IMG/VR virus record: IMGVR_UViG_3300014199_000001
Span: 1-37,896 of that record
DNA length: 37,896 nt
Strand: one strand, 5' to 3'
From: a virus
Lineage: Duplodnaviria > Caudoviricetes
Shown here: positions 1 to 26,987 of the stretch, one piece after another
Position numbering within the stretch: position 1 is the stretch's first letter
How the letters are laid out: each line of letters begins with the position of its first letter
Notes under the pieces: model-generated
Seen by the model: only the letters and a program-made list of their open reading frames with translations
What the model was told of the DNA's origin: nothing
The model's database searches: none
Position numbers and translations under genes: made by a program

Positions 1-123
1 ATGTAGTGATAGAAGAGAAAGGATTTTGCTAAGGGATACAGAATTATGCTTGTCTAGTGATTCTAGGAATTTTAAATGTACATTGCCACTAGGTCATGCA
101 GGAAATCATAATTGGGGTAGTCC
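1..123. repeat. Terminal direct repeat (copy 1), identical to 37774-37896; indicates a circular or circularly permuted complete genome
   Basis: 123 bp atgtagtgat...ggggtagtcc is identical at both ends, and the ORF starting at 37379 continues in frame into ORF 26..271. Confidence 0.95.
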
Positions 124-274: not shown

Positions 275-442
275 ATGATTAGCTTGGATAGCTGCCACGC
301 GGATATATCACCATTCACGGAGGGGGTATTGAGTAGGTGGGCTAAAAGTATTGGGGTTGATACGGGATTGTTTGAGACTAAGGAGGAGTGGGAATTGCTG
401 GCGGCTATTGCTAGGTTGCATTGTGAGGAGGGGAGATGGTAA
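275..442 (+). CDS. Small hypothetical protein (55 aa, MISLDSCHAD...GRW)
   Basis: Manual translation; fills the gap and its stop overlaps the pol start. Confidence 0.5.
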   Translation: MISLDSCHADISPFTEGVLSRWAKSIGVDTGLFETKEEWELLAAIARLHCEEGRW

Positions 443-3315
443 AGCCCGATTCATGCCAAGGGTGTATATTAGCCACATTTTCGGATGGATACGCGGTTAG
501 TGAGGGGAAAGGGACTAGTGGAGTTGTGATATTAGGGGAGGCGCTAGGATATAATGAGTATGTGGATGGATTGCCGTTTCGGCCTAGAGCGCAAGCGGGA
601 AGCAAGTTAGATCAGGTTATTAGGTTGGTAGAGCAGGAAACTATGCAGCCATTGAGCAGGAATAGTTTCCTGCTTTATAATTTGGTGAATTGTCATCCAC
701 CGGGGGATGCACTAGCGGGGGAAAAGTATGAGGCAGGCGCAGTAGCGGGGTGTGCGCCGAATGTGGAGAGAGTAGTGGGAGGGTTTCAGACGCCGTTTAA
801 TAAGACGGTGTTAGCGCTGGGGAATTTGCCCCTGAAATATCTGACTGGCGTTAGTGGAGATGCAAAGGAAAAACAGAGTATTACTAATTTGAGGGGATAT
901 GTGTTGGAGAGTAAGTATGGGCCTGTAGTGCCAGGGTTGCATCCAGCGTTTATTAGGAGGGGAAAAAATCATTGGACGCCGTTATTGATGGCGGACATGA
1001 GATTGGCGCTGGAAGTTGCATCGGGGAAATATACTAGATATCTGGGGCATCCTAGATATGTTAGGCCACAGTTTCAGGTTGCGCCTAACGTGGATGAGGC
1101 GTGGGGTTATTATTATAAGCTGAAAGATGGGTCTAAATTGGTTGTGGGGTATGATATTGAGACTGTGGACACACCGGGGAGCGAGGAGGATGAGAGAAAC
1201 GAGTTAGAGAGTACGGAGATAACTCAGGTACAATTTTCGGTTGCAAAGGATGAGGGAATAGCATTGCCGTGGCAGGGGGAATATATTAAGGTTATTAGTT
1301 TGATATTGGGGTTGCCGAATGTTAAACTGAGTTGGAATGGGTGGAATTTTGATGCGCCGATTTTGGAGAGTAAGGGAGTAACGATTGGTGGGCAGGATCT
1401 AGATTTAATGTGGATGTGGAAACATTATCAGCCTAAGTTACCGAGGGGGTTGCAGAGTGTGGCGAGTTTGTTTAGGTTTCCGTTTCCGTGGAAGCATTTG
1501 TACCAGGCGGATTTGGGGTTTTATGGGTGCGCGGATGTTAGTGCCCTGCATTATATATGTGGGCCGTTGCCGGGGCTGATGAAAGATAGGGGAGTGTGGG
1601 AGGGATATAAGAGGCATATATTAGGGTTGCATCCAATATTAGTTAGGGCTAGTAAGAAGGGGATTCCGGTTAGCGAAGAAAAGAGATTAGCATTGGAGGA
1701 GAGGTTTAAGGCTAGGAGGGGGGAGTTAGATAAAGAGTTGCAGAAGGCGATACCAGATGAGTTGAGGAATATTAAGCCGAAAAGGAAGGATAAGGAGACG
1801 GGAGAGATTAGTTATGGCTACATTAGTGGAGAACCTAGAATCGTTAGACAAGGAACTGAAGAATATAGGAGAATGCTTGGAGTTATCCCAAAGGGTAGGA
1901 GTGCCATCCCAATTAATGTATATCTTGAACGAAAGTATAATCTTGTCTATGCAGAGTTTAAGGAAACAGATAGCAACGAGGTTATCAATAGATGGTGCAT
2001 CATAGAGCCATTTAAGGCTAGTAAGGATCAGTTAGTTAAGTATCTCAAGTGGAAAAAAGCAGAGGTTGAAAAAGTTGTTGAGGATTTAGTGTTGCAGAGG
2101 CAGATGTTAGGGGGGCGAGATAAGGAGATAACCGAGGAGATAGAGACTTATAGAGATTTGGCTAAGAGCTATGAGATACCTTTGACGTTGAAGACTAAGA
2201 AGGAGACTACTGGGAAGAAAGAATTGGATACCTTATTTGATAATACAGGCGATCCTGTTTTAGCATTGGTTACTAAGATCCGAAGTCTAGATCAAAACCT
2301 AAATAATGCTATCCCCAACTGGAAGCCAAAGGGAGATAGTAGAGTACATACTACATTTGGTTTTACTGCAAGTAGCGGGCAATTGGATGCTAGACGGCCC
2401 AATGTCTTGAACGCAGGGGCACACACTGAATATAGTAGGGAGTTCAGAGAGATTATAACTGCCCCTGTAGGGAGAACATTTATTGAATTTGATTTCCGGT
2501 CATTTCATGTAGCGACAATGGGATACTGTGCTAATGATAAAGACTATGTAAGGTTTTCTCAGATAGACCCTCACTCTATTCTGGGAAGTTATATAGATCC
2601 TAGTGTGATAGGACAAACCATAAGTCTAAAGTGGTCAGATAAGGATATAGATATTGCAGCGAGAGAGTTTAAGAAGCGATGTAAGGAGATAGAGAAAAAG
2701 GGGGGAGTTAATGTAAGACAGGAGTTAGCTAAGCCCACAGTGTTAGGAAATCAGCTTGGGCTAGGGGCAGTCAAGTTGCAAAGGCAAAATAGAAAGTTTA
2801 TCAAAACTATAGCTGAGGCTGAAAAGATGCAGGAATTGCTTGTAGGGTTGTTTCCGAAAGTGGCAAAGTTTAAGGATGCAATTAGGGAGAAGGCACATCT
2901 GCAACAGTATCTGATTAATGAATTTGGGTTTATTGATTACTTTTTTGATGTATTTAGCTTCGAGTTCAATAAGAGAACTAACCAGTGGCAGAAGAAACAT
3001 GGAGATGATAGCGAGAGGGTTATTGCATTTCCTGTACAGTCTACAGCATTCGGTAAGATTCAGCTTGATATACTAGAATGTGAGAGATTAGGATATAATG
3101 AGAAATATGAGTTTGTTGTGAGCATTCATGATTCACTGTTATTTTGCGTGAGAGTGGAGCATATAGATGAGTGCTTGGAGAATGTTAGCAGAGTTATGCA
3201 GGCCCCGTGTAAGATGCTAATTAATGCGGCTACTGGGGCTGAGGGGTTGGCGGTGGGGGTAGAAGCGAAAGTGGGGGGTACATGGGCTAATATGAAGGAA
3301 GTGCAAATATGCTAG
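436..3315 (+). CDS. polA: Family A DNA polymerase with N-terminal family-4 uracil-DNA glycosylase-like domain and 3'-5' exonuclease
   Basis: UDG: CxxC, GEALG, PF, NxxxCHPP, HPAF. Exo: YDIET, WNGWNFD, YGCAD. Pol: motif A EFDFRSFH, motif B RQELAKPTVLG, motif C IHDS. Confidence 0.92.
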   Translation: MVKPDSCQGCILATFSDGYAVSEGKGTSGVVILGEALGYNEYVDGLPFRPRAQAGSKLDQVIRLVEQETMQPLSRNSFLLYNLVNCHPPGDALAGEKYEAGAVAGCAPNVERVVGGFQTPFNKTVLALGNLPLKYLTGVSGDAKEKQSITNLRGYVLESKYGPVVPGLHPAFIRRGKNHWTPLLMADMRLALEVASGKYTRYLGHPRYVRPQFQVAPNVDEAWGYYYKLKDGSKLVVGYDIETVDTPGSEEDERNELESTEITQVQFSVAKDEGIALPWQGEYIKVISLILGLPNVKLSWNGWNFDAPILESKGVTIGGQDLDLMWMWKHYQPKLPRGLQSVASLFRFPFPWKHLYQADLGFYGCADVSALHYICGPLPGLMKDRGVWEGYKRHILGLHPILVRASKKGIPVSEEKRLALEERFKARRGELDKELQKAIPDELRNIKPKRKDKETGEISYGYISGEPRIVRQGTEEYRRMLGVIPKGRSAIPINVYLERKYNLVYAEFKETDSNEVINRWCIIEPFKASKDQLVKYLKWKKAEVEKVVEDLVLQRQMLGGRDKEITEEIETYRDLAKSYEIPLTLKTKKETTGKKELDTLFDNTGDPVLALVTKIRSLDQNLNNAIPNWKPKGDSRVHTTFGFTASSGQLDARRPNVLNAGAHTEYSREFREIITAPVGRTFIEFDFRSFHVATMGYCANDKDYVRFSQIDPHSILGSYIDPSVIGQTISLKWSDKDIDIAAREFKKRCKEIEKKGGVNVRQELAKPTVLGNQLGLGAVKLQRQNRKFIKTIAEAEKMQELLVGLFPKVAKFKDAIREKAHLQQYLINEFGFIDYFFDVFSFEFNKRTNQWQKKHGDDSERVIAFPVQSTAFGKIQLDILECERLGYNEKYEFVVSIHDSLLFCVRVEHIDECLENVSRVMQAPCKMLINAATGAEGLAVGVEAKVGGTWANMKEVQIC

Positions 3316-13757: not shown

Positions 13758-14306
13758 TTAACTTTGTGCAGGATAGAAATATCCTACCAAACTTCCCACC
13801 ACATTCCCGTTCAACGCTCCATTATTCAAATGGTTGATAACTAGCGTAATCACCTGATTTGAGTAAACCCTAATTGGACTAATCGGCCTAGGTGTCTGGA
13901 TAGTCCCTTTCTCAATCAAGATATTATCGAAATTTCTTACCGCTGCACCATTACGAAACAGTTGCGCCTGAATATCTCCACTCCCTTGAACAAATCCTCC
14001 CCCCGTAAAATTCCAACTAAACGCATTTATAACTCCATCCATCCCAGTTGGCACTGTCATCATAACAACCGTAACCGTTCCTGCCACTGCTGGCAATGCC
14101 GCTACTTGTGCCTGATCGTATGGTACACTGCCATCTGGTTCCTCTAACCAAGGTCTTTTAATAACACTAGTTGGCAAGTTAGACCCACTAACATCTGCTG
14201 TCCCACTTGCCACCAGTTGCCCATTAGTCAACAGCGCCGCATGAAGCAACGCTAACTCATTCATTGCTGAAGCATAGCTATTCAAACTATTTGCATTAGT
14301 CGCCAT
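13758..14306 (-). CDS. Jelly-roll-like capsid-associated protein
   Basis: Beta-rich; ends VVGSLVGYFYP, similar to the C-terminal strand of its neighbours. Confidence 0.5.
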   Translation of the reverse strand: MATNANSLNSYASAMNELALLHAALLTNGQLVASGTADVSGSNLPTSVIKRPWLEEPDGSVPYDQAQVAALPAVAGTVTVVMMTVPTGMDGVINAFSWNFTGGGFVQGSGDIQAQLFRNGAAVRNFDNILIEKGTIQTPRPISPIRVYSNQVITLVINHLNNGALNGNVVGSLVGYFYPAQS

Positions 14307-14310
14307 TCTC

Positions 14311-14925
14311 TTACCTCGTAATCTTTCTCATGCCAATCGAATTTGCATTTATTGGCACAGCTATGCTAAGTAACACTTGAACAACCGCCCCATTGGCATT
14401 AGTATCCAAATTGACGATTTCCCAATTCAATACCCCTGGTGGCGTCACAATAAATGGACTAAGTAACAACCCTGCCCCAAATGGCGTATCTGCATTACTC
14501 CCTGGATCGCTAGGCCCCACACCATTCCCCACTCCATACTCTAATTGCATATTACTCATCACTGTACGATCCAATGCGTAATCCCCATAAAATATACTCG
14601 CCTTACTTCCCTTATCCCACAACTTCAGTTTAATCCCCCCAGGGTTTATAGGTGATAAACTTGTCCCAGGATCACAAAAGTAATTCATCGAAACTACGTA
14701 ACTTCCCGCCGGTACTTGCACACTACCATTAACCGTTCCCAGCGCTGGAATTGTGGTATCACCCCCAGTAGGGAAATTAACTCCTATCCAGTAGTAATTT
14801 CCACTTTCCAGTATCTCCCTCATCAAATCTAACATTTCATCTGTCTGCCAATTATTATTATACCCAGGCAGATTCTCAATAAAAGTTAGTGGGCTGTAGG
14901 GAGCAACGATACTCAAAGGATTCAT
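14311..14925 (-). CDS. Jelly-roll-like capsid-associated protein
   Basis: Beta-rich; LLSPFIVTPPGVLNWEIVN...VQVLL pattern. Confidence 0.5.
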   Translation of the reverse strand: MNPLSIVAPYSPLTFIENLPGYNNNWQTDEMLDLMREILESGNYYWIGVNFPTGGDTTIPALGTVNGSVQVPAGSYVVSMNYFCDPGTSLSPINPGGIKLKLWDKGSKASIFYGDYALDRTVMSNMQLEYGVGNGVGPSDPGSNADTPFGAGLLLSPFIVTPPGVLNWEIVNLDTNANGAVVQVLLSIAVPINANSIGMRKITR

Positions 14926-14938
14926 AAATCCCCCTTTT

Positions 14939-15388
14939 CTAGCTACTAGTTGGAATCAGATAGCTTCCACGGAATGCAAAATAAATAGTATATGGCTCGT
15001 TACTCGAGATATCTTCAATTTCGCAATTGATACTACCACTAGCCGAATAATAAATGTAAGGGCACACCACATACGGAAACTGCCCTGATCCAAACAACAA
15101 AGTATCAATCACGCGATCTGTGGTACCGCCATTCCCCCCACACTGATACCACGTAGCACCATCCGAATTTCCTAGCCTAAATTTAAATCTCCGTGCCGCG
15201 CTAGCTCCACTAACAACTGTCTCTCTAGTCAGCGCTTTCAACCAAAAGTCACAAGTCCCCGGCAACGCCAGTGTAACCTTCTGCACGCTCAGATTAACCG
15301 ATACGCTAACCTCTAATGGAAACGTCTGTTCCCTCTCAATGTAAGTTTGTCCCCCAATACTTACCGTTCCATAACTTCCTGCTGCCAT
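14939..15388 (-). CDS. Jelly-roll-like capsid-associated protein
   Basis: 149 aa; FPYVVCPYIYYSASGSINCEIED...IYFAFRGSYL. Confidence 0.5.
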   Translation of the reverse strand: MAAGSYGTVSIGGQTYIEREQTFPLEVSVSVNLSVQKVTLALPGTCDFWLKALTRETVVSGASAARRFKFRLGNSDGATWYQCGGNGGTTDRVIDTLLFGSGQFPYVVCPYIYYSASGSINCEIEDISSNEPYTIYFAFRGSYLIPTSS

Positions 15389-15513: not shown

Positions 15514-16326
15514 TTACGCAACTCCACGAGACAGAATCCCATGCAACCGTGCGCTAACAGTCAATCCCACTCCAACATAAGGTGTAGCACTATTCTGCGC
15601 CAAACTAGCCCCACCACCATCGGCCTTAAACTGCATGTTGAAAGTTTGAGACTGCAAAATAGTAATACCAATGATTCCATCGGCAACTACATTCGCCCCA
15701 TTATTAACGCCCAATGCCAACCCCGCAGGCAACCGAGTATCCCACATATTATGATAGCTCGGCCAACCATTAGTAGAATTAAGCGAGTAAGCCGTTGCAG
15801 CCGCCGCCAAGTTACTAACACTGTTAGTAAAAATTCCGCCGCTCTGCGGAAACACATCCAAAGGCCCCTCAGCATACACTTTCTGGCTAACCCAAAACTC
15901 CATATAAGTGGTGCTAAAGAAACTTTCCAAATCAATCGGCGCAACCTGAGGATTAATAAAAATGCTAATCCCCGTCACGTTATACCACTGGGGCGCGGGC
16001 AAGCTACTAACCAACTCTAGGTTAGTATCCACCTTAGTCTTAGTTCCACTCCCAATCGGTGCAACGAACAGCTTAAAAAGTTGGGGGAGCGTAGTACCTG
16101 CGGCATAACTAATCCGATCATACAACACCCAATTGACATAATCTGCCATGTTAGGTACAATCGGATTGCTTCGCCGACTCCGCGCACGCGCAATTTTCAA
16201 AAAATCTGTCATATGCGCGCGGCTAACTTTACTACCCCCAACTTTATCTTGGGTAAATTCACTCCCCATTACAAACAGTTCCTTACCTTCTCGAACTGCT
16301 GCCAGAATATTATCGAAGTTTTTCAT
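15514..16326 (-). CDS. Putative major capsid protein (single jelly-roll-like) with N-terminal extension ending RRSNP
   Basis: Beta-rich after residue 55 (LYDRISY..FKLF..PIG..KTKVDTNL..LP..VTGI; C-terminal LHGIL); strong RBS; followed by a terminator; no HK97 features. Confidence 0.55.
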   Translation of the reverse strand: MKNFDNILAAVREGKELFVMGSEFTQDKVGGSKVSRAHMTDFLKIARARSRRSNPIVPNMADYVNWVLYDRISYAAGTTLPQLFKLFVAPIGSGTKTKVDTNLELVSSLPAPQWYNVTGISIFINPQVAPIDLESFFSTTYMEFWVSQKVYAEGPLDVFPQSGGIFTNSVSNLAAAATAYSLNSTNGWPSYHNMWDTRLPAGLALGVNNGANVVADGIIGITILQSQTFNMQFKADGGGASLAQNSATPYVGVGLTVSARLHGILSRGVA

Positions 16327-16369
16327 TTATCATCTCCTAGAATTTAACTATTCCCATATCTTGACTAAC

Positions 16370-17365
16370 TTACATTAGTCTCCCAGTTCGCCGCAACCGG
16401 CCCATACCTGCATTAGCCGTAGCCGCAGGCACCGCCATAGCTAGCGCATTAGTCACCTGCTGTGGGACCTGAAACGCTCCCATATTCCCAGGCTGATTAA
16501 CTTGAGGCAGATAGAATGAGCTTCCACCAATCAGGCCCATTCCCCTCAATCCACTAATCCCGGTATAACTCGCCGCACTCGGCAGAATCGCATTCAGCAT
16601 TTGTGCCGCAGCATATACCAATCCCCCAACCATGAAGTCATCCCCCATAGCAGAGTTCTTAGCGACCTTACCAACTAACTTCCCTTGCACCACAGCTACA
16701 ACTGCCATAACTAATCCACCCATAAACCCACTAGTCAGTGAAGAAGGCAGCATCCCACCAATCAGACCAGTAGCAAAATTGGTAACTACCATCCCACCCA
16801 ACGCGCCCAGAACCTTACCGCTAGTTCCAGACATCAAACCCGGATTCCGCCTATAATAACGGCGATGACTAGCATTATGCCGTCGCCGTCTCCGAGAGAA
16901 AAATGGATTATGCCGTACTTTAGTCCCATAATTGCGCCTCCGTCGATGCGCCCTATTAACACGTCGTTTCCGTCTTGCCATAGTTGAGCCTCCTTTATTA
17001 ATAATAACGATTTTCTTACCCTTGTTACGTTTATGGGAATAACTCCCAACTAAGCTAGCTCCTAATGCTTTCTTAATTTGTCTAGCTCGCCGCGTGATAC
17101 CACTTAGTCTACTGCGTTTAATTCTCCGCCCTGGATTACCCAACGCGGGAAATACCGTAAGAATATGACCTACATTGCGTTTGCGATGCCGTTTAACTAC
17201 CGCTTTAAACGTTCGCCGTCTTTTAGGATTACTCCTTCTCGCCTTCAACGCCGCCCTTTGTCTCTTAGTCCCAAAGAACTTAATCTGAGCCGCCGACATT
17301 TTCCGCCGCCTACGCTTACCTGGATTAACTAATCTCCGTTTCTTAACTACACTCATTTCTGCCAT
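16370..17365 (-). CDS. Arg-rich DNA-condensing core protein fused to a hydrophobic membrane domain
   Basis: First ~175 aa are extremely R/K-rich with repeated NP; C-terminal half has 2-3 Gly-rich hydrophobic helices and GMG motifs. Confidence 0.65.
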   Translation of the reverse strand: MAEMSVVKKRRLVNPGKRRRRKMSAAQIKFFGTKRQRAALKARRSNPKRRRTFKAVVKRHRKRNVGHILTVFPALGNPGRRIKRSRLSGITRRARQIKKALGASLVGSYSHKRNKGKKIVIINKGGSTMARRKRRVNRAHRRRRNYGTKVRHNPFFSRRRRRHNASHRRYYRRNPGLMSGTSGKVLGALGGMVVTNFATGLIGGMLPSSLTSGFMGGLVMAVVAVVQGKLVGKVAKNSAMGDDFMVGGLVYAAAQMLNAILPSAASYTGISGLRGMGLIGGSSFYLPQVNQPGNMGAFQVPQQVTNALAMAVPAATANAGMGRLRRTGRLM

Positions 17366-17435
17366 CTATTGCATTTACTCCTTTCTTTAGTATTTAACTC
17401 CAACCATAATCTTTAGATTCACGGATCACCCCCTT

Positions 17436-17963
17436 CTAAGATCCATAGATATAATTGGACTTACCATCCATATACCCTTGGTAAAATGATTCTTGTGCAG
17501 TAACCCTCTTACCTGGAATAGTAGGCTTACCCTTGGACTTTTGCCATGCTACTACCATATCCGCAAATTTCTGTGACTTACCCGCAACCCTACCCCTTAA
17601 ATACCATTTACGGTTTAACCCAGCTTCAAACGGATTACTAGCCCTACGTTTCTTAGTAACTCTCTTCCGTGCAGGGTTACTCTCCCTTTCTGTCAATAAA
17701 CTAACACTCCCATCCTTATTAAACCTAACCGCGTGAGTGGGCACCCATGAACCGAGAGCGGGGTTATGCTTAGGTTCTTGCCCATAATGCTCCTTAACAA
17801 TATCCCCATCTTTCATTAAGGTAACATCTTCATAAGCAGCACGGCCATACCCAGTCTTACTCTGCTTAACATAAGTAGAAAATTTCTTACGTGCTTCAAA
17901 CCCATTAGTACCGGAATAAACTGTGCCAATGTTACCTACAATAACTTCCCATTCGTGTTTCAT
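17436..17963 (-). CDS. Basic protein with three NP motifs (core/virion candidate)
   Basis: KHNP, ESNP, RRASNP. Confidence 0.65.
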   Translation of the reverse strand: MKHEWEVIVGNIGTVYSGTNGFEARKKFSTYVKQSKTGYGRAAYEDVTLMKDGDIVKEHYGQEPKHNPALGSWVPTHAVRFNKDGSVSLLTERESNPARKRVTKKRRASNPFEAGLNRKWYLRGRVAGKSQKFADMVVAWQKSKGKPTIPGKRVTAQESFYQGYMDGKSNYIYGS

Positions 17964-17999
17964 AACTAATTCCTTATCCCCACATCCTCAAAAATCCTC

Positions 18000-18028
18000 T
18001 TGACAAAAAGTGATGCCCACGGTATTAT
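18000..18028 (+). promoter_or_regulatory. Near-consensus sigma70 promoter antisense to the virion operon
   Basis: TTGACA-17bp-TATTAT in the 17964-18083 intergenic gap. Confidence 0.65.
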
Positions 18029-18083
18029 ATGATTATGGGCAACACGTTCAATAAAATTACTAATGGCCGGATTAGCGCTTGGC

Positions 18084-18908
18084 CTAATCCTTAATCCCCT
18101 CTGCCACGATGCTATATGATCCCCCTACCAGTGTCAATTTGCTATTAACACAATCATAAGTTAACATTGGTAGTTCTCCCTTAGATTCCTCGGAGAAATG
18201 ATGCTCGTATTCACATACTTCGCCATTACTATCGTCTAAGTGGAATTTGTCTGAAGTGTAGCATATAGAAACCACATATCCTATATTAACTATTCTTCTA
18301 TTAGTTCCTTCAATCTCTAATCCCTGATCTCCACCAATTATCTCTAAATTCTGCCCCCCAGCATCACAGCACAACTTCGGCCTATCAACCTTAAAACTAA
18401 TAGTAATCTCACTCTTCCCATCAACCCCTTCAATATCCATCTCAGTCAAATCTCCGAGAGCTACCATCGCTCCATCGAAGGTTTCAACTTCATCAACATC
18501 AATAACCTCTACCGGCTTTCTACCATGAAACTTCTCTGACATCTCCTCAACATCTGAAATATCATCCCCATCTGGGTTATACATCCTACCTTTAGTCTCT
18601 CTAAAACTAGTCCACCCTTTTCTCCATGCCGCCCCTTCACTATTAAACGGCCCCACTTCTCCCATCACACTCTTAAACCACCACTTACCATCTCTCTGAA
18701 ACACACTAGGATTAGATTTACGCCTCCCCGCCAACTCCCTCGCAAACCTGCTCCTAACCCCTTTCGGAGTTGCCTTTATCATCTCTTCTGCAATATGCTG
18801 GCTAATCCCCTTCACCCTCGCTGCCCCACTAGCCACAGCTTGCATCAATCCATACTGACTCGTACTAGTTGTGGGATTAACCTGTCTACCATATCTTTTA
18901 GATGACAT
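18084..18908 (-). CDS. NP-motif protein with basic N-terminal segments and an acidic, internally duplicated C-terminal domain
   Basis: RQVNP, RRKSNP, RMYNP; RPKLCCD..NLEIIGG resembles LPMLTYD..KLTLVGG. Confidence 0.65.
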   Translation of the reverse strand: MSSKRYGRQVNPTTSTSQYGLMQAVASGAARVKGISQHIAEEMIKATPKGVRSRFARELAGRRKSNPSVFQRDGKWWFKSVMGEVGPFNSEGAAWRKGWTSFRETKGRMYNPDGDDISDVEEMSEKFHGRKPVEVIDVDEVETFDGAMVALGDLTEMDIEGVDGKSEITISFKVDRPKLCCDAGGQNLEIIGGDQGLEIEGTNRRIVNIGYVVSICYTSDKFHLDDSNGEVCEYEHHFSEESKGELPMLTYDCVNSKLTLVGGSYSIVAEGIKD

Positions 18909-18918
18909 AACCTAACCT

Positions 18919-19377
18919 CTAACTTACTAACATTGCTACTAGCCCCATCCCCAACGCCGCTAGCGCAACCGTTGTAATAGTCCCCGCATCTATTCCAGTT
19001 CCGCTATCATCTGTACTCGCACTCTGCACACCCAAACTACTCAATAACGAATCCGCCCCAATTCCCACTTGACTAACCAAATAATTCAAATAATTACTCG
19101 TATCATTCTCCGTAGGCGGTGCATACGTATATATAAAACTCCTCAGTGTTGCCCCACTTGCCATTGCATTTTCGATATAACTTTGTAAAGCCGCCCATCC
19201 ATCCTCAGGAGTAGCGAATGTAGCAAAAGTGCCACTCGCAGTACTCTCTGATCCAACTTCCGTTGGAGCATACCGTAAGTTCCCCGGATTATTATTCCTT
19301 TGTGCGATGCTGCCACTAACATTAAACCCCTCCATCTGTGCAATTGCATCCATCAAACTCTGCATATCACTAGCCAT
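18919..19377 (-). CDS. Membrane-anchored lysozyme-like (NNPGNLR family) virion peptidoglycan hydrolase
   Basis: AIAQMEG, RNNNPGNLR, FATPEDGWAAL, YAPPTENDTSNY; C-terminal TM. Confidence 0.75.
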   Translation of the reverse strand: MASDMQSLMDAIAQMEGFNVSGSIAQRNNNPGNLRYAPTEVGSESTASGTFATFATPEDGWAALQSYIENAMASGATLRSFIYTYAPPTENDTSNYLNYLVSQVGIGADSLLSSLGVQSASTDDSGTGIDAGTITTVALAALGMGLVAMLVS

Positions 19378-19625: not shown

Positions 19626-20048
19626 CTATGCCGTTGCCAGACTAGCCTCTAACTGTTTTTCCCGCTGCCTATACTTCGCTGCCTTACTACGTTTTCTATT
19701 CCTACTCCCTGCTTCCCATCTATACTTATGCTGCTTTGCTTGATGCACACTAGAGTAAACCATATAAGCCCCAATCACTCCCGCAATCAACTCAGGTACC
19801 CCCCATGTGCTAGGATCTCCACTAAACAATCCAGTACCAAGCAACCCAGTTCCATCAAACGATAATGTCCCCATCCCAAATGGCTTCGTAATATTTACTC
19901 CCTGTACCCCACTCGCCAATGCCGCCTTCTCCATTGCGATAAGTGGGTTATTATCTCCCCACGTGCTAGGTACAGTCATATTATTCTGCAACCCCAAACT
20001 ATGAGGACTCGAACTAACCTTAAATGTATTATCTGCCTGCGCGAACAT
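19626..20048 (-). CDS. Membrane protein with GMG motif, TM and basic tail
   Basis: Likely ATG 20048; PFGMG; LIAGVIGAYMVY; R/K-rich C-terminus. Confidence 0.6.
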   Translation of the reverse strand: MFAQADNTFKVSSSPHSLGLQNNMTVPSTWGDNNPLIAMEKAALASGVQGVNITKPFGMGTLSFDGTGLLGTGLFSGDPSTWGVPELIAGVIGAYMVYSSVHQAKQHKYRWEAGSRNRKRSKAAKYRQREKQLEASLATA

Positions 20049-20049
20049 A

Positions 20050-20421
20050 CTATTTCCCTTTCCCGCCCACCAAAACCCCAATAGCTACAATCCCCCCTAC
20101 TCCAATCAATATCACTTCCCACCACGGCAACCCAGTAGTAGGTTCCGGCGTATCCAGTGATTGAAAAAAATCCGCATTCTGTTGCTGCGTGGATGCCATT
20201 TGAGCATTAGTTATAGCCTGCACTGTGTCACTAGCTGCCTGCCCGCTCGTCGGTACCGCAGGTATAGCCTGCCCACCTACTGTCGATTCCACCGTCGCAG
20301 GCATTGGGGGAGACGTAAATGTTAATCCCTCAAAAGCATCCCACAATTTATCCCAAATGATAGTAGCAAAAGCCTCATTCTCTTCAAATAGCGTACTATC
20401 CCCCAACCCTCTCGCTATCAT
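20050..20421 (-). CDS. RGLG-motif protein with C-terminal TM anchor
   Basis: MIARGLGD...WWEVILIGVGGIVAIGVLVGGKGK. Confidence 0.7.
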   Translation of the reverse strand: MIARGLGDSTLFEENEAFATIIWDKLWDAFEGLTFTSPPMPATVESTVGGQAIPAVPTSGQAASDTVQAITNAQMASTQQQNADFFQSLDTPEPTTGLPWWEVILIGVGGIVAIGVLVGGKGK

Positions 20422-20423
20422 AA

Positions 20424-20687
20424 CTATCCTTTTGGCTGCTGACCCATATTTGCCTGAATCAGATTCAATATCACCTTCGCTTCAGTAGGCAATTCCAACC
20501 CACTAATTCCCCTTACCACTGCCTCATGTACATGTGGCTTAACCGCGTCCCATATTCCACTAACCTCAAACTTAGCTTCCGCCAATCTAGCCATTTGCTC
20601 CGCAAACTTATACGCCAGTACATCCACTCTTCCCAGCGCTGGGGCAGTATTCAAATCAACTACCTGTCTACTAACCTTATTTGTCAT
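20424..20687 (-). CDS. Hypothetical protein
   Basis: ORF track 20424..20714; likely ATG 20687. Confidence 0.55.
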   Translation of the reverse strand: MTNKVSRQVVDLNTAPALGRVDVLAYKFAEQMARLAEAKFEVSGIWDAVKPHVHEAVVRGISGLELPTEAKVILNLIQANMGQQPKG

Positions 20688-20925
20688 AATCCTTACTAGC
20701 CAACAACCCCACACCCAACAAACTCGCCAGCGTTGCCAGTTGCGTCTGCGTACTCATCAACTTATGCACCATATCCGGTGGTGCCCATATAATCGCCACT
20801 GCCAATGCGCAACTAATAATTCCAAAGGTGTTAGTTTTCCAGTTACTCTTATTCATAGTATTTATCGCCTTCTGTATCTTGCCCGCTAACTCCTCAGTCT
20901 TAATTAACTTAAATGGACTTACCAT
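20677..20925 (-). CDS. Small two-TM holin-like protein
   Basis: NWKTNTFGIISCALAVAIIW ... LASLLGVGLLASKD. Confidence 0.5.
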   Translation of the reverse strand: MVSPFKLIKTEELAGKIQKAINTMNKSNWKTNTFGIISCALAVAIIWAPPDMVHKLMSTQTQLATLASLLGVGLLASKDYDK

Positions 20926-20926
20926 C

Positions 20927-21373
20927 TTATAACCCCTTCAATGTCTTATAAATCCCAACCCATCCATAAATAGCATTCTGCGCTTGCCCCAATGTCAACA
21001 ACCCGCCGCATACTTGCTTATGTAGCCAATTCTCTACTACGTCTTTCTCTCTAGCCCCAAAGTATCCCGCTTGCCCCTTATAATATTGTGGCCACAGATT
21101 CCTAATATCGTTGCTCCCGCCAATCTCCAATGATATAAAATGATCTATCTCAACATCCTTAGCCAAATCCGCCAACGGCACCCCATACTTTTGCGCTACC
21201 TTTCTTCTAACATCCTCCGTAACTGCCCTAACCGTCGCGGTATACCCACTCTTACAAATAGTCTCTCCAATATTAGCTTGCGTTACACTCGTATCCACTG
21301 CCCCCGGTGTCAACTTAGGATTTGGCATCATTGCATGAGACGCAACAACCAAAAATAATATCAAACTAGTCAT
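20927..21373 (-). CDS. Secreted HNH-family nuclease
   Basis: Signal peptide MTSLILFLVVASHA; PKLTPG, EIDHFISLEIGGSNDIRNLWPQ, KDxxExxLxxxVC. Confidence 0.75.
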   Translation of the reverse strand: MTSLILFLVVASHAMMPNPKLTPGAVDTSVTQANIGETICKSGYTATVRAVTEDVRRKVAQKYGVPLADLAKDVEIDHFISLEIGGSNDIRNLWPQYYKGQAGYFGAREKDVVENWLHKQVCGGLLTLGQAQNAIYGWVGIYKTLKGL

Positions 21374-21924
21374 TAGAATGTCTTTCTAAACTCCAACCCA
21401 TAAGTCGGCTTAACTTCATTCGCCGTAATCGCCACATACATAAACTGCGCCACCACTGGCATGTGAAACGCCTTCTTACTCAGTACATACCCCGCATCAT
21501 AACTAACCTCCACTCCTCCCGCAAACATTGCACTAGTCGCAGTCCCTGTAGCTGTGGCAGCTGTAGTTACTCCTATCATTCCCTTACCAATAAAAGCCCA
21601 ATTCCCACTATGCGCCACATGATATTCCAGTGCCTCCCTCAGCGTGGCAAACCCCTGATTCAACCCTACCGCTGTATCAATGTTAGTTACCAAAAACGCA
21701 TTACTACATGCCCCTGTCTTAATCCCAAATCCCGTAGTAACTGCTGGCAACTGTCCATAGAAATCATATGTCATCCCGCCCAACGCAAAATATGTAAAAG
21801 GTGGCGTTGCGTTAGCTGCGCATGTAGTAACCGGCGTAGTAGGGGTGGTAGTGGTGGTAGTTGTAGGAGTTTGCCCCAATATCCCCACCACCATCATCAA
21901 TCCCGCAATAATAACTTTCTTCAT
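21373..21924 (-). CDS. Putative outer-membrane beta-barrel protein
   Basis: MKKVIIAGLMMVVGILG|Q, Thr-rich linker, alternating amphipathic strands, C-terminal TYGLEFRKTF. Confidence 0.6.
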   Translation of the reverse strand: MKKVIIAGLMMVVGILGQTPTTTTTTTPTTPVTTCAANATPPFTYFALGGMTYDFYGQLPAVTTGFGIKTGACSNAFLVTNIDTAVGLNQGFATLREALEYHVAHSGNWAFIGKGMIGVTTAATATGTATSAMFAGGVEVSYDAGYVLSKKAFHMPVVAQFMYVAITANEVKPTYGLEFRKTF

Positions 21925-21928
21925 CTCA

Positions 21929-22240
21929 CTAAACCCCCTTCACCAGCGACAACCCAATTATCCCACCTATTGCCAACAATGGCCAGTTATTCTCTAACCA
22001 CACCAATCCCTGATTAGTAGTTGCTACTGGCTGGGCCGCCGCTGCCGCTGCTGCATTTTCCCATTGACTTAACACCGCTGCCGAATAACTATCCAAAGTA
22101 GAATAATCTGCTGGATTTATCGGTCCTACAAACCCCGCTGGCACCGGAGGATTATATGCCAAGTCACTACTAACATCAATATCTCCAATCCCCCTGCCAT
22201 AATGTCCCTGCTTACCATTCTCCCAATAAGGTCTAGGCAT
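21929..22240 (-). CDS. RGIG-motif protein with C-terminal TM anchor
   Basis: YGRGIGD; WPLLAIGGIIGLSLVKGV. Confidence 0.7.
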   Translation of the reverse strand: MPRPYWENGKQGHYGRGIGDIDVSSDLAYNPPVPAGFVGPINPADYSTLDSYSAAVLSQWENAAAAAAAQPVATTNQGLVWLENNWPLLAIGGIIGLSLVKGV

Positions 22241-22242
22241 AA

Positions 22243-22773
22243 CTAACTCCCTATCTTAACAATCCGTTTCTCATATCCCGTCGGTATTAAATTCTGTCTA
22301 AATGGCGTCCCCTGCGGATTAGCATAAGGGTTAACACGATTAGCAATAACTCCCAACCCAAAATTGTTATACCCAAACCCACTAAACCCCGCTGCCTGCA
22401 TAGCAGTCCACCAATCTTGAATAGAACACAAATACCCTACCGGCTGCTGTGCCCCATTCACCGCTAATCCTGCTGGTCCTGGTATCCCTCTAACCGCAGC
22501 ATAATAGTAATTCCACACACTAACTGTCTGCAAGCTAGTTGGATCTGTCCTACCTGCTTGTGCCGCAGCCGCAACTAGCGCCAATGTATTAGTCGTGCTA
22601 GATACACTCGTAGCTGTACTCGCTTGGGGACTAGTCGTTGCAGCCGTAGTTGTAGCCGCAGTAGTATTTATCCCTAACACACTCTCTATCATACTCAGTG
22701 GATTAATTCCCAAAATCTCCAATATCACATATCCCCCACCCAATATCATCAACCAATCCGTAATTGTACCCAT
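22243..22773 (-). CDS. Membrane protein with N-terminal TM and C-terminal GFG/GLG motifs
   Basis: WLMILGGGYVILEILG; Thr/Ala linker; FSGFG, NFGLG. Confidence 0.65.
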   Translation of the reverse strand: MGTITDWLMILGGGYVILEILGINPLSMIESVLGINTTAATTTAATTSPQASTATSVSSTTNTLALVAAAAQAGRTDPTSLQTVSVWNYYYAAVRGIPGPAGLAVNGAQQPVGYLCSIQDWWTAMQAAGFSGFGYNNFGLGVIANRVNPYANPQGTPFRQNLIPTGYEKRIVKIGS

Positions 22774-22776
22774 AAC

Positions 22777-23862
22777 TTAACCTCTCCTGCCTTTATGTTG
22801 CCCACTCATCATAAAATATAGTGCCACTGCTGGAATAGAAACCAATCCCGCTATCTGCACGAAATCCCCACTACTAAATACCCCGCTCCAACTACTAGGA
22901 CTAAACAGTGCCTCAACTCCTGTCATAAAATCACTAAATGGATCACTACTAGGCGTAGTTGGGGTAGTTGTTACCGCAGCCGCACCCGCAGTCAAAGCAT
23001 TTACACTAGTACTAGTGCTTGCCCCAGTCTGTGCTGCAACCGTGCTACTTTGCGTAGTTGTATTCGCTGCAACAATACTAAACGACACATTCCCTACAAT
23101 ATCCCCACCTACTATCCATTGTTCTGTCCAATCCCCTATCTCATCAACCGTACACGTTCCACTCAAGCTAAAATTCCCATTCGCATTGGTGGTACCAACA
23201 TTTATATTCCCTACAACCCCATTCATTCCCCCACTAACTACCACCGCCGAATTAGCTTGAGCATTAGTGATACTTGCTGCCCAAGTATCCCCTACCTGCA
23301 TAGGATTCTCAAGCACACTAAATGTGAAATTGGGATTACTAGTTGTAGGCACAGGCGTGTTAGTTCCACCGTTAGTAACTGGGGATGCAGTCGTTGTTAT
23401 AGGATTCGCCGCCGTAGCTTGAGCCGCAACTACCGATGACTGTGTTACAGCTGGTACAACTGGACTAGGAGCAACTCCTGCTGCATATGCCTGCCCTGCT
23501 GCACTAACTGGTACCCCACTAGCAATAGCTTGCGCTACAACGGATGGAGGTACAACCGTGGTATTAGCATTTATCGTAAATGCCAATGTTCCTACTTGTA
23601 CACCCCCAACCATCCATATCTCATTCCAGCTACCAATCTGAGAATTAGTACACGTCCCACTAATCCCAAAGTTCCCATTTGAATCGGTAGTCCCAACATT
23701 AGCAAACCCACCGCCATTATTATTAACAGTAACAGGCGCATTCGGTGTAGCCCCAGTAATACTTACAATCCATTCATCCCCAACTTCCATAGGATTGCGC
23801 GGTAATGAATACCAAAAACTAGCCGTTGCCCCCATTCCTCTACTACGTCTTGGATATCTCAT
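22777..23862 (-). CDS. RGMG-motif protein with two tandem Ig-like repeats and C-terminal TM
   Basis: RSRGMG; two copies of NPMxVGDxW...NVGTTxxNGNFxxSGTCT...IGxWxExWxVGG; C-terminal TM. Confidence 0.75.
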   Translation of the reverse strand: MRYPRRSRGMGATASFWYSLPRNPMEVGDEWIVSITGATPNAPVTVNNNGGGFANVGTTDSNGNFGISGTCTNSQIGSWNEIWMVGGVQVGTLAFTINANTTVVPPSVVAQAIASGVPVSAAGQAYAAGVAPSPVVPAVTQSSVVAAQATAANPITTTASPVTNGGTNTPVPTTSNPNFTFSVLENPMQVGDTWAASITNAQANSAVVVSGGMNGVVGNINVGTTNANGNFSLSGTCTVDEIGDWTEQWIVGGDIVGNVSFSIVAANTTTQSSTVAAQTGASTSTSVNALTAGAAAVTTTPTTPSSDPFSDFMTGVEALFSPSSWSGVFSSGDFVQIAGLVSIPAVALYFMMSGQHKGRRG

Positions 23863-23863
23863 A

Positions 23864-24439
23864 TTAACTCTTGCTCAATAAACTTATTGCCCCAACAACT
23901 GCTATCGCTCCCCCTACCATCAACGCTCCATCACTCCCAAACAACCCCGTCAAGGTCCCGCTTACTGTTCCCGCATCAATTGGCGTTACATCCGCAATAG
24001 GATCATAATATAATGCGAACCAATCTAACTTCCCTCCGCGTTGCCTATCACTAATCCCAGTCGTTCCCGCAGACCCTAACGCCGGATTACTAAGTAAACT
24101 TACTGTCTGCGCCCATACTTGATTAAACACCGTCTCCGCTGCCTGCTGATTAGCAATTGTTTGTGGCTCACTATCCCACTGCGCTAAATTTTGCTTTAAA
24201 TAAACCTCTTCTTGATTTACATCCTGCGTAGCTTGTATCTTTTGTGTATCCGGCGCAAATAGGCTATTAAAAGCCATTCCCAATAACCCAATCGCGCCAC
24301 CTATCGCTGCTCCTATCGGCCCACCAATAGCTCCCACCGCCACTAATGCCCCCACCGTGGAACTTCCAGCTATGGCTACACCACTAGTTACAGCCTGCCC
24401 AGTTGTTAATCCCAATCCTCGATTGGACTCGCCAATCAT
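23864..24439 (-). CDS. RGLG-motif membrane protein with glycine-zipper helix
   Basis: SNRGLG; GAIGGPIGAAIGGAIGLLG; C-terminal TM. Confidence 0.7.
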   Translation of the reverse strand: MIGESNRGLGLTTGQAVTSGVAIAGSSTVGALVAVGAIGGPIGAAIGGAIGLLGMAFNSLFAPDTQKIQATQDVNQEEVYLKQNLAQWDSEPQTIANQQAAETVFNQVWAQTVSLLSNPALGSAGTTGISDRQRGGKLDWFALYYDPIADVTPIDAGTVSGTLTGLFGSDGALMVGGAIAVVGAISLLSKS

Positions 24440-24447
24440 ATAAATCC

Positions 24448-25095
24448 TTAGTGATGCGACATTCCACTAAACAGCACAAGTGCCAGCCCACCAATAAGTA
24501 ACAACGGTAGCATAGAACTCAAACTAGCACTCAATGCACTCGTGCTAAACGCATTACTAGTAGACCCAGTAGGCAGCGTATAAGTTGTAGTCCCATACGC
24601 ATTCGTACTCACATATTGCCCTGGATTAGTTTGTGGCACTGCATACCGCGTCCCCAGTACCTTAGCCGCCGCACTAATCCCACTATTCAACGCTGCCACT
24701 AGTCCCTGATCTATTGCACTAGGGCTACTAGATCCCTGATTACTTCCACCCCCTGAACTTCCACCATTAGCTCCACTCCCATTAGTATTTGCATCAATCC
24801 CCGCTAGAATTGATCCAAATGAGGGACTAGCATACAAGTTAGTAGAACTATTAACTCCCGACGATGGATTCCCATTAGCAGCTACAGGACTAGTATAATT
24901 CGATAGGCTATCATAATTATCATACTCATCTAAATCTTGTCCTAATCCCCTTGCATTATTCCCAAACCTATTAATCGGTATAGGCAGTGTCCCATCATCC
25001 TGCGATAGTGCATAGTCTCCACCCATTCCTTTACCCGTCAAACTAGTAGGTATAAATGGCGAACCGTCATCCTGATATAATCCGTAGTCTCCCAT
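24448..25095 (-). CDS. Low-complexity GMG/GLG-motif protein with C-terminal TM
   Basis: ATG 25095 (AAGGAG); GDYGLYQDDG/GDYALSQDDG repeat; KGMGG, RGLGQ; MLPLLLIGGLALVLF. Confidence 0.7.
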   Translation of the reverse strand: MGDYGLYQDDGSPFIPTSLTGKGMGGDYALSQDDGTLPIPINRFGNNARGLGQDLDEYDNYDSLSNYTSPVAANGNPSSGVNSSTNLYASPSFGSILAGIDANTNGSGANGGSSGGGSNQGSSSPSAIDQGLVAALNSGISAAAKVLGTRYAVPQTNPGQYVSTNAYGTTTYTLPTGSTSNAFSTSALSASLSSMLPLLLIGGLALVLFSGMSHH

Positions 25096-25198
25096 ATATC
25101 TCTCCTTCAATATCCTAATTGAGCGTATGTTATTGTGCCGCTTACTGTACCAGTAGCCGCTGTAACACAAACATAATTACTCGTTTCAAATAAATCCC

Positions 25199-26425
25199 CT
25201 AATAAGGTAAAGTTGTATAACTTATCATTCCTGTTACGGCTGCTGCACTAGTTGTAAGACACCAATCATTTCTAAACCCCGTAAATTGAGCATTACTAAA
25301 TTCCGTAATGGAACCTAGTCCACTACCCAAATTTACAGACTGCGGCGTAGTCGATGTAAATTGCCACTTACCCAAATTTATAATTGGATTATCGCATGCT
25401 GTGACATTTGTTCCTCCAACTAGCAGAGTTACTGTAGTAGCTGCCACGGGTTGTAATGATATTGCACAAATATGTACAACCCCCGTAAGTGTTGCCTCAC
25501 TAGGTAAAATAGCCCCAGTGCCACTAGCCACGTTAATAATAGAAGAGCTATCACACTGCACAATAGGCATACTCCCTAATGTGGTGCTTGTTGCGGGCAA
25601 CCCAGTAGTATTAGTTCCTACATAATCCATTGTTACCGCGCAATCAGAGGGGGTACCCGCCAACCGAGTAGTGACTATTTCAAGTGTACTATATAATCCA
25701 TATCCAAAAACTTGACTATCATATCCTGAAGTAGCACTAGCGCTATTACCATTTATAGTGATAGACGCAATCGTTTGCAACGCGCCGCCCCCTATAGCAT
25801 TAGTGGTCCCTAACAAACTTATCTGATAACCATCTGTACTCACACAACTTTTAGCTGGGGCATTATTCACCGCCGCAATAGATAATGCATGAGTAGTTTG
25901 CCCATAGTTACTAACGTAAATAGGTGAGCTACTACCCGTGGCAGGCATTACCGTAGCATTATAAACATGTTGTACTGTAAATTGCCCAATTTGAGTGGTT
26001 CCTCCTGCGGTATTAAGACTCCCCATGTACGTAGCAGACGCCACACAGTTTGTGGTATCAAATGAAATAAGATTGAATCTCACATATGGATATGCGCCAG
26101 AGCCAACATACGTAATACTAGTTTGCCCATTGATGGGCCCTTGGGGGTACCCGAATGCTACCCAAGTAGCGTTATCAGAGGAAAATTCTAACTGTCCTAC
26201 AGTGTTAATTGCAGGCGAACAAATCTTGGTCGGGGCATTCAACATCTTTAATACAACTTGATGCCCAGTCTGCCCAATATTGAGTACACTACTAGTAGCC
26301 GTGGCAGAACTAACAGTATTAAACAAAGCTACGTACACACTATTACTCACACTCCCACTCTGAGCAAACAAACACTCAATGAGCCCGCCCACTATTACAA
26401 CTGGTAGTATCTTCTTAATTAACAT
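25199..26425 (-). CDS. Signal-peptide-bearing beta protein with tandem repeat domains (virion surface candidate)
   Basis: MLIKKILPVVIVGGLIECLFA|Q; repeats NIGQTGH..NAPTKIC and NYGQTTH..NAPAKSC. Confidence 0.7.
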   Translation of the reverse strand: MLIKKILPVVIVGGLIECLFAQSGSVSNSVYVALFNTVSSATATSSVLNIGQTGHQVVLKMLNAPTKICSPAINTVGQLEFSSDNATWVAFGYPQGPINGQTSITYVGSGAYPYVRFNLISFDTTNCVASATYMGSLNTAGGTTQIGQFTVQHVYNATVMPATGSSSPIYVSNYGQTTHALSIAAVNNAPAKSCVSTDGYQISLLGTTNAIGGGALQTIASITINGNSASATSGYDSQVFGYGLYSTLEIVTTRLAGTPSDCAVTMDYVGTNTTGLPATSTTLGSMPIVQCDSSSIINVASGTGAILPSEATLTGVVHICAISLQPVAATTVTLLVGGTNVTACDNPIINLGKWQFTSTTPQSVNLGSGLGSITEFSNAQFTGFRNDWCLTTSAAAVTGMISYTTLPY

Positions 26426-26987
26426 CCCATTCAACCTTCCTATAAACCTTCCCTGTTTCCCACCCAAGTAAATTTCCATGACTACAATCCATTGGCACCC
26501 TACAACTTTTTACATACGCCGCAACATATATATGGCTAAATCTCTGCGGCATCTCTGGGTCTGCTGCTATCGTTACATACGTACACTTAATATGCGCTGC
26601 ACACAACATACTCGCACATAGCAAACTAAAATCATCGCAGTCCCCTTCAGGATTCGGCATACTCAACATTAACCCTGGATCAATTAGTAACTCCTGATTC
26701 CAGTCCTGCTCCCCAAGCTCGTTATATACAATATCCTCATCTAACCTAAATCTGATCTTTCTCTTGACATACCAAAAGATAGCCCTAATCAACGCTAGCT
26801 TGTCTGATTTGTTTCGCAAGGTTCGTAGGCAGGAGTCAACTGCGGAGGTTATAAGAGGATACGTTGCCGCGCGCCGAGCTAGGGCTACCATCTGATTTAC
26901 CGTATCCGCTGTGGATATGGCATTGTCATTGGGATTAGTCCCACGGTCACTTATGCGGATTGGTACTCCCCAATATCCTAAGCTCAT
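26415..26987 (-). CDS. Transglutaminase-like cysteine protease
   Basis: AIFWYVKRKIRF..D, GDCDDFSLLCASML, FSHIY, VPMD: Cys-His-Asp triad. Confidence 0.85.
   Translation of the reverse strand: MSLGYWGVPIRISDRGTNPNDNAISTADTVNQMVALARRAATYPLITSAVDSCLRTLRNKSDKLALIRAIFWYVKRKIRFRLDEDIVYNELGEQDWNQELLIDPGLMLSMPNPEGDCDDFSLLCASMLCAAHIKCTYVTIAADPEMPQRFSHIYVAAYVKSCRVPMDCSHGNLLGWETGKVYRKVEWDVN

Follow-up and report, generated by a model that had tools for sequence, protein, structure and literature searches.

What does a short motif, in which basic residues precede the dipeptide Asn-Pro (NP), do in four consecutive genes of an uncultured virus? The genes lie on the minus strand at positions 15514 to 18908 of the IMG/VR record IMGVR_UViG_3300014199_000001 (the whole stretch of 37,896 nucleotides that was analysed is called the window here). 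They encode a predicted single-jelly-roll major capsid protein (15514..16326), a 331-aa core protein (16370..17365), a 175-aa variable cassette protein whose content differs among relatives (17436..17963), and a 274-aa cassette polyprotein that is a candidate self-processing maturation enzyme (18084..18908); they are named below by their first coordinate. A first-pass annotation, made from the letters alone, had listed these basic-x-NP motifs, all of which are present in the genes named, and had read them either as protease sites or as a shared docking motif. The comparative evidence suggests that NP is probably the scissile bond (Asn|Pro) of a virion maturation code, all conceivable cutters taken together.

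The four genes contain 13 NP in 1,050 aa, compared to a shuffle mean of 2.08 (maximum 9); this count was reached in none of 20,000 composition-preserving shuffles, and NP ranked first for enrichment among the 400 dipeptides (Bonferroni 1.4e-4). An Arg or Lys stands at most three residues upstream in 11 of the 13 (0.74 expected). The non-structural genes (n=13) hold 3 NP against 7.07 expected, none of them basic, and in the remaining 22 minus-strand genes the NP excess is mild (26 versus 16.75; 35/2,000 shuffles) and the basic-NP excess is not significant (4 versus 2.08; 305/2,000). The motif is also conserved among homologs: NP is in excess 5.7-fold in the 16370 family, 4.8-fold in the 17436 family and 3.2-fold in the 18084 family, and the Asn-Pro-Ile of the capsid protein is found in 119 of 120 homologs among the matches listed (the sole exception is N-terminally truncated). 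As an internal control, the three conserved genes that follow the capsid gene downstream (13758..15388, minus strand) showed NP ratios of 0.8–1.2 in their homologs. At NP the two Asn codons and the four Pro codons all occur, in about background proportions. These comparisons indicate that NP is a protein-level signal conserved across the virus group; its form appears to be basic-x-N|P(G), with weaker N-x-G variants.

In the capsid protein (167 homologs) the motif R51-R52-S53-N54-P55 (N54-P55 at 16162..16167) stands between a 54-aa leader and the shell domain, with Pro55 as the predicted mature N-terminus. The structure model is an all-beta single jelly roll (pLDDT 75.8), and its best fold matches were SPV1 (Z 8.0, root-mean-square deviation (rmsd) 4.2, 146 aligned), HHIV-2 (7.8), HCIV-1 (7.0) and P23-77 VP17 (6.9), scores that are middling and partly tied for a predicted model; no PDB chain was matched by its sequence. 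The annotation had placed the motif exactly where the beta domain starts, which is approximately right: N54 lies between a predicted helix (39-50) and the first strand (63-74), and past residue 60 pLDDT climbs from about 55 to more than 80. Column conservation in an 82-row alignment is 0.35-0.55 in the leader versus 0.91 at residues 54-62. One lineage (loci L045, L046 and L047, 99% identical) has a leaderless capsid protein that begins Met-Pro-Ile-Ala-Pro-Asn, encoded by ATG-CCT-ATT-GCC-CCA-AAT after a GAGGAGG ribosome-binding site and in-frame stops immediately upstream, and retains NP in its core and 18084 genes. Met is usually removed before Pro at a protein N-terminus, and the leaderless protein would then be identical to what an Asn|Pro cut leaves. 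A tree of 30 selected capsid proteins places this lineage as sister to all 22 rows with leader and NP (96/93, joint branch), a topology compatible with leader gain or loss; in these sequences the capsid Asn appears to be invariant only where a leader precedes it.

The core protein has an Arg/Lys-rich part (residues 1-174) followed by a hydrophobic domain. Its five NP (residues 14, 46, 77, 153 and 174; contexts RLVNP, RRSNP, LGNP, RHNP and RRNP; 17321-17326, 17225-17230, 17132-17137, 16904-16909 and 16841-16846) split the basic part into predicted fragments of 14-76 aa with 29-43% Arg plus Lys. Among the homologs (42 found, 35 after dereplication, 32 spanning the basic half), a stretch of 10-15 residues separates the last NP from the hydrophobic domain in 28 of the 32, and the other four carry N-Q-G, N-A-G or N-S-G at this place. 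Pro follows 142 of the 338 Asn in the core homologs (142 NP versus 13.4 expected); NPG occurs 80 times (1.1 expected) and N[^P]G 87 times (26.2 expected), and neither QP nor DP was found.

In the 18084 gene three basic segments (residues 1-11, 12-66 and 67-111) are followed by an acidic conserved C-terminal domain (residues 112-274, 163 aa, net charge -24; 18084..18575, minus strand). Its NP sites are RQVNP (residues 11-12; 18873..18878), RRKSNP (residues 66-67; 18708..18713) and RMYNP (residues 111-112; 18573..18578), the last at the domain boundary with Asn in 110 of 117 aligned rows. The 17436 gene carries KHNP, ESNP and RRASNP (residues 67, 96 and 110; 17760-17765, 17673-17678 and 17631-17636). 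The claim that the motifs fall at compositional boundaries holds for site 111 of the 18084 gene, site 174 of the core protein and N54 of the capsid protein, and fails for the others, which lie between basic segments. Family scans of the four NP genes and of the 18084 domain in Pfam, PHROGs and NCBIfam gave no match.

A profile search at E<=0.001 recovered 2,666 representatives (clusters) of the 18084 family. The listed matches were the best 150 of the 2,666. The sample examined comprised 156 proteins, a set that no longer included four weak matches; one protein without the anchor pattern was dropped from it, leaving 155. Leaders in this family (15-642 aa) are basic and contain 340 NP versus 46 expected, and the domains are acidic (mean charge -18.8) and contain 28 NP; 126 of the 155 members have an NP at most 35 aa from the domain. 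The NP count rises with leader length (rho 0.82), with a median spacing of 56 aa. In leaders of at least 100 aa (n=72), 350 of 603 internal alignment ends fall at most 6 aa from an NP (16% expected), a comparison tempered by the non-independence of the ends and by the shared motif, which may draw them towards NP. The 210 cassettes fall into 28 families plus 106 singletons; their order varies, a protein has up to ten, and cassettes are also found as stand-alone genes or in the 17436 slot. An internal homolog exists for 16 gene-initial cassettes: 10 of these begin at most three residues from the Pro of the homolog (2 of them, P0163.0 and P0226.0, with an exact Met-Pro) and 6 begin further off. 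Pfam matches were obtained in 6 of 75 scanned proteins (GNAT, HNH/endonuclease VII, DUF2314, DUF7336 and RMF-like; one above the curated cut-off). Besides the protamine-like peptides that the annotation had proposed, cutting would also release other pieces: the 18084 and 17436 genes consist of mobile cassettes strung together, and a few of these gave weak enzyme-domain hits. A scan with a transglutaminase-like family (see below) gave 11 IMG/VR loci; six records were analysed (G003 and four fragments were excluded). The 18084 domain is present in 8 of the 11 records and in all six complete ones, and the core and 18084 genes of the six analysed records, all from distant genomes, hold 79 NP versus 11.6 expected.

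Some further features of the cassettes were noted. An HNH-like cassette occurs as a stand-alone gene (L030:8218-8667), and its homolog is the first cassette of P0133, P0134 and P0158. Cassette families 1, 11 and 14 of the 18084 family (e.g., P0212, P0194, P0199) are short, Gly-rich and hydrophobic with basic tails and, by eye, have the look of membrane-active peptides. A 689-aa basic protein with 15 NP and no Pfam match lies elsewhere in the structural region of one distant genome (G009:C1 47381-49450, minus strand; L103:17381-19450), and in another about 370 aa of NP-delimited cassettes lie inside the conserved 18084 domain (G012:C1 49069-50904, minus strand; L110:14069-15904).

In the reading that we favour, the precursors would co-assemble around the DNA, and cutting at NP would remove the 54-aa leader of the capsid protein, detach Arg-rich peptides from the core protein with its membrane anchor and turn the cassettes into individual small virion proteins, to be delivered with the genome. 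Asn would be needed only when something precedes it, since Met replaces it in gene-initial parts. The idea that NP marks protease sites is thus well supported by comparative evidence; all of this support is comparative, and some observations weigh against the reading. Seven distant capsid proteins, with 13-41 residues ahead of the column, have no NP at the place equivalent to N54, and in 29 of the 155 members of the 18084 family no NP lies as close as 35 aa to the domain (by eye, NS or NG is seen in many of them). Furthermore, a second NP in the capsid protein (residue 125, IFINPQV), which was missing from the earlier list, has no basic residue before it and is predicted between a strand and a helix; N125-P126 is probably structural, and NP alone is probably insufficient as a signal.

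As to what would cut NP, the conserved domain of the 18084 gene could well be the enzyme and is our preferred candidate, because of its position, its charge complementarity and its own terminal NP. Its model is confident (pLDDT 92.6), and eight residues do not vary across 117 rows (H128, G129, K221, H236, P247, G263, Y265, G271). No Ser or Cys is invariant in these 117 rows (S264 is present in 66 and S/T219 in 82), and for this reason the domain would act through His128, Lys221, His236 and Tyr, which might activate water or promote attack by the substrate's own Asn; the acidic domain would bind the basic residues ahead of the Asn and cut in trans. In distant members H128, K221, H236 and the tyrosines are retained, but D220 and H223 vary. 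Foldseek searches of the domain against PDB and BFVD gave no match at E<=0.001, and the best fold scores (Z 4.7, rmsd 3.5 Å, 95 aligned, PilZ; and 3.7) are weak split-barrel and tail-tube matches only; the absence of a fold match for the modelled domain does not prove a new fold. Neither a peptidase family match in Pfam, PHROGs and NCBIfam nor a usable match in the ESM Atlas was obtained, and HExxH is absent from the family consensus. The only PDB sequence matches of the family, all weak, are to engineered constructs with what is presumably an ENLYFQG tag and were rejected.

Against this candidate, the domain has neither a known protease fold nor an invariant nucleophile, and a three-His zinc site is weakened by the variation of H223 and D220 in distant members. 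A 96-aa stand-alone version of the domain (L055, E 0.008), located beside a separate NP polyprotein, has Arg at K221 and no aligned H128. The cassettes that interrupt the domain in G012 imply that it would act there as two chains. Its presence in all six distant genomes, shared with the transglutaminase-like protein, cannot choose between the two candidate enzymes.

The transglutaminase-like protein (26415..26987, minus strand; PF01841, E 1.3e-4 in Pfam) is a rival candidate for cutting NP or, alternatively, for cutting a second motif. It is the only product of the window genes with a recognisable protease-type triad (C117-H152-D167), which is present in 120 of 120 homologs among the matches listed (680 hits); the gene is also an apparent core gene of the virus group, being found in all six distant genomes. 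It heads a set of predicted membrane-protein genes (19626..25170, minus strand) that carry [RK]G[MLI]G near their N-termini (20050, 21929, 22777, 23864 and twice in 24448; FGMG in 19626). In the window genes [RK]G[MLIF]G occurs 7 times versus 0.87 expected (0/3,000 shuffles); it is conserved close to the N-termini of homologs as well and occurs in 20 of 69 crudely called open reading frames of the six genomes (7.5 expected). The motif suggests a possible second cleavage code (G[ML]G) and, since the transglutaminase-like gene heads the genes that carry it, two codes with two enzymes; the transglutaminase-like protein fits the G[ML]G motif better than NP. In the 24448 gene similar DYxLxQDDG segments come after both the Met start and the first GMG, and the core protein also carries a G[ML]G motif (RGMG, residues 274-277, in its hydrophobic domain). 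An NP near the start of the transglutaminase-like protein itself (TNP) was rejected as part of the NP code (Asn in 90 of 120, Pro in 74 of 120).

That the transglutaminase-like protein cuts NP, with the 18084 domain acting as the anchor by which cassettes enter the virion, seems to us rather unlikely. The invariant triad and the presence of the gene in all six genomes speak for it, as does the fact that the transglutaminase-like superfamily acts on Asn/Gln amides, but the gene heads membrane-protein genes with a different motif, and papain-fold virion proteases other than adenain cut at Gly motifs. Adenain itself also cuts at a Gly motif (PMC4246237). Under this alternative, moreover, there is no explanation for the invariant polar residues (His/Lys/His/Tyr) of the 18084 domain. 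If NP were instead an uncleaved docking or turn motif, its copies would tether flexible core or cargo chains to a partner and the proteins would stay whole. Asn-Pro is a common turn and helix-cap, NP copies scale with length, no protease fold was identified, and the cassettes inside the 18084 domain of G012 would be easier to accept uncut. The docking motif that the annotation had allowed for is weakened, however, by the Met that stands in place of Asn in gene-initial parts (the L045 capsid; cassettes P0163.0 and P0226.0) and by the coincidence of mobile cassette ends with NP; moreover, Pro is replaceable by small residues and Asn is kept, and the contexts downstream of NP differ (strand, helix, Arg runs), so that we consider it unlikely.

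Self-cleavage of each Asn-Pro bond, by asparagine-lyase chemistry in cis or by slow spontaneous scission with no separate enzyme, has precedents, and for the single capsid site it is plausible. Documented Asn|Pro cuts are autocatalytic, i.e., reovirus mu1/VP5 at N42-P43, the NPTH of FlhB/YscU, and RsgI (PMC3207474, PMC10328401), and the jelly-roll coats of nodaviruses and picornaviruses cleave themselves after Asn (PMC3207474). Those cases each use a folded scaffold, however, whereas the sites here number in the hundreds, in low-complexity contexts that are unrelated and have only upstream basic residues in common, which points to a common recogniser and makes self-cleavage very unlikely. Finally, we give almost no credence to the ideas that the motif is a recombination site in the DNA, that it signals ribosome skipping or that it follows from composition: a tyrosine recombinase is encoded and NPG is the commonest context, but the Asn and Pro codons at NP are unconstrained, only 4 NPGP and no DxExNPGP accompany 276 NPG in all examined proteins and open reading frames (which rejects StopGo), and composition-preserving shuffles never reach the observed 13. 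Returning to cleavage by the 18084 domain, a broader combination is conceivable that we put forward as doubtful: the domain would be a new-fold enzyme that makes the substrate Asn cut Asn-Pro in trans and hence the trans-acting equivalent of the asparagine peptide lyases, which cleave themselves, an NP code for core, cargo and capsid would be orthogonal to a G[ML]G code for membrane proteins, and the NP cassettes would be a plug-in system by which the virion delivers shuffled small effectors.

The window is a complete circular genome, as follows from a 123-nt terminal direct repeat (1..123 and 37774-37896, no strand; window ends compared) together with an end-to-end match to a second assembly. 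Its genes matched PolA (family A), a VapE-like helicase, a tyrosine recombinase and a lysozyme-like protein (Pfam, PHROGs). No canonical Walker A ([GA]x4GK[ST]) was found in the six frames of the complete genome, and consequently no FtsK/HerA packaging ATPase was detected; Pfam likewise gave no match to one among the window proteins. The gene order is kept in 54 metagenome loci (the window itself is one of them), and tblastn against 50,697 annotated phages gave no match. The virus is likely a tailless member of a large uncultured group of circular-genome prokaryotic viruses. Its hydrophobic and Arg-rich genes suggest a possible internal lipid membrane and nucleoprotein core.

The three control genes after the capsid gene (13758-15388, minus strand) are beta-rich and candidates for a second capsid protein and a penton; profile comparison did not connect them to the capsid protein. 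For the conserved 14939 gene, which adjoins the capsid gene, such comparisons gave at most 1.3% probability, and its protein matched only unnamed viral clusters in the ESM Atlas. The lysozyme-like gene (18919-19377, minus strand) precedes the 18084 gene and is swapped in relatives (L008:6793-7332; L030:6778-7440) for different-looking lytic genes with a C-terminal hydrophobic tail. On the plus strand (436-3315) the family A DNA polymerase is fused to an N-terminal uracil-DNA-glycosylase-like domain, and an HNH-AP2 gene comes after it. The GC skew is very strong (up to +0.5/-0.45) and tracks the coding strand across the window (1-37896). An identical contig (L056) lies in a Saccharibacteria-labelled bin, which is probably not host evidence, and two loci, L057 (a partial match) and L001 (L001:1-3100), look chimeric, with virus joined to unrelated DNA.

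Motif-coded proteolytic maturation is already documented for adenoviruses and large tailed phages. The phages T4, phiKZ and SPN3US have tailed HK97-type heads, and their motif-directed enzyme is a serine protease with Glu at P1. As proposed here, their prohead proteases (gp245, A-X-E|) use a motif code: a single virion protease removes propeptides, which it cleaves at several sites, and also processes itself (PMC10052503); the window differs in a predicted single jelly roll instead of the HK97 fold, in Asn-Pro, and in the lack of an invariant Ser. In adenoviruses adenain (AVP) recognises (M/I/L)XGG|X or (M/I/L)XGX|G and acts on pVII, pre-mu, pVI, pIIIa and pVIII (PMC4246237). In both systems a jelly-roll virus carries one short motif in many of its precursors, core and capsid alike, and basic core precursors are, or here would be, trimmed. 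The adenovirus analogy drawn in the first-pass annotation is, however, functional only: adenoviruses have a Gly-based motif, a Ulp1-type cysteine protease, a double jelly roll and a eukaryotic host, whereas here the motif is basic-x-NP, the predicted jelly roll is single, and no Ulp1/adenain-family protease was matched by Pfam among the 36 window proteins.

The polyvalent proteins of phages and conjugative elements are likewise shuffled multi-domain proteins beside virion genes, for which cutting by an embedded, sometimes C-terminal, peptidase has been proposed; their peptidases are zincin MPTase, assemblin-like, DD or LonC (PMC5512222), none of which was matched here, and the system of the window differs in its small cassettes and in an explicit motif common to capsid and core. 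With asparagine peptide lyases and Asn|Pro autocleavage the window shares a conserved Asn followed by Pro and, as predicted from sequence, an N-terminal peptide released from a capsid protein; the cases described in PMC3207474 and PMC10328401, however, are self-cleaving single sites in a folded domain, whereas here many sites occur in unrelated chains. Portogloboviridae include SPV1, whose single-jelly-roll VP4 is the top fold match of the modelled capsid protein, at Z 8.0 and about level with HHIV-2 and others. Members of the family have an internal lipid membrane, a nucleoprotein core and a Sulfolobales host; their DNA is circular and double-stranded, and the window is likewise a circular genome, but theirs has only about 20 kb and no polymerase, versus 37.8 kb with its own family A polymerase here; their ICTV profile does not mention a maturation protease (PMC8459092). 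Single-jelly-roll viruses with two major capsid proteins (HHIV-2, HCIV-1, P23-77) are also among the best capsid fold matches. These viruses (Halopanivirales) have an FtsK/HerA-type packaging ATPase, which, as stated above, was not detected here by Walker A scan and Pfam.

In the literature covered (without supplements and with few subscription papers, so that an earlier mention is possible), we found neither this virus group nor the motif described, nor any account of motif-coded maturation in single-jelly-roll viruses of prokaryotes; neither a protease nor a transglutaminase is mentioned in the accessible part of PMC5894146, and that of PMC11161782 treats the proteases of eukaryotic double-jelly-roll viruses. 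The system of the window works like adenovirus/phiKZ-type maturation and like polyvalent proteins, without their defining enzyme, motif or capsid features. If confirmed, it would add a new protease family (over 2,600 clusters) whose fold is unmatched and whose Asn|Pro specificity is rare. It would also supply a readable rule for predicting which mature proteins make up the virions of an uncultured group and for marking off more than a hundred small cargo proteins, as yet uncharacterised, and it would be a prokaryotic parallel to the core condensation and maturation of adenoviruses. Compared to the known systems, what appears to be new is a variant of motif-coded virion maturation that combines a cassette system with a candidate enzyme of unmatched fold.

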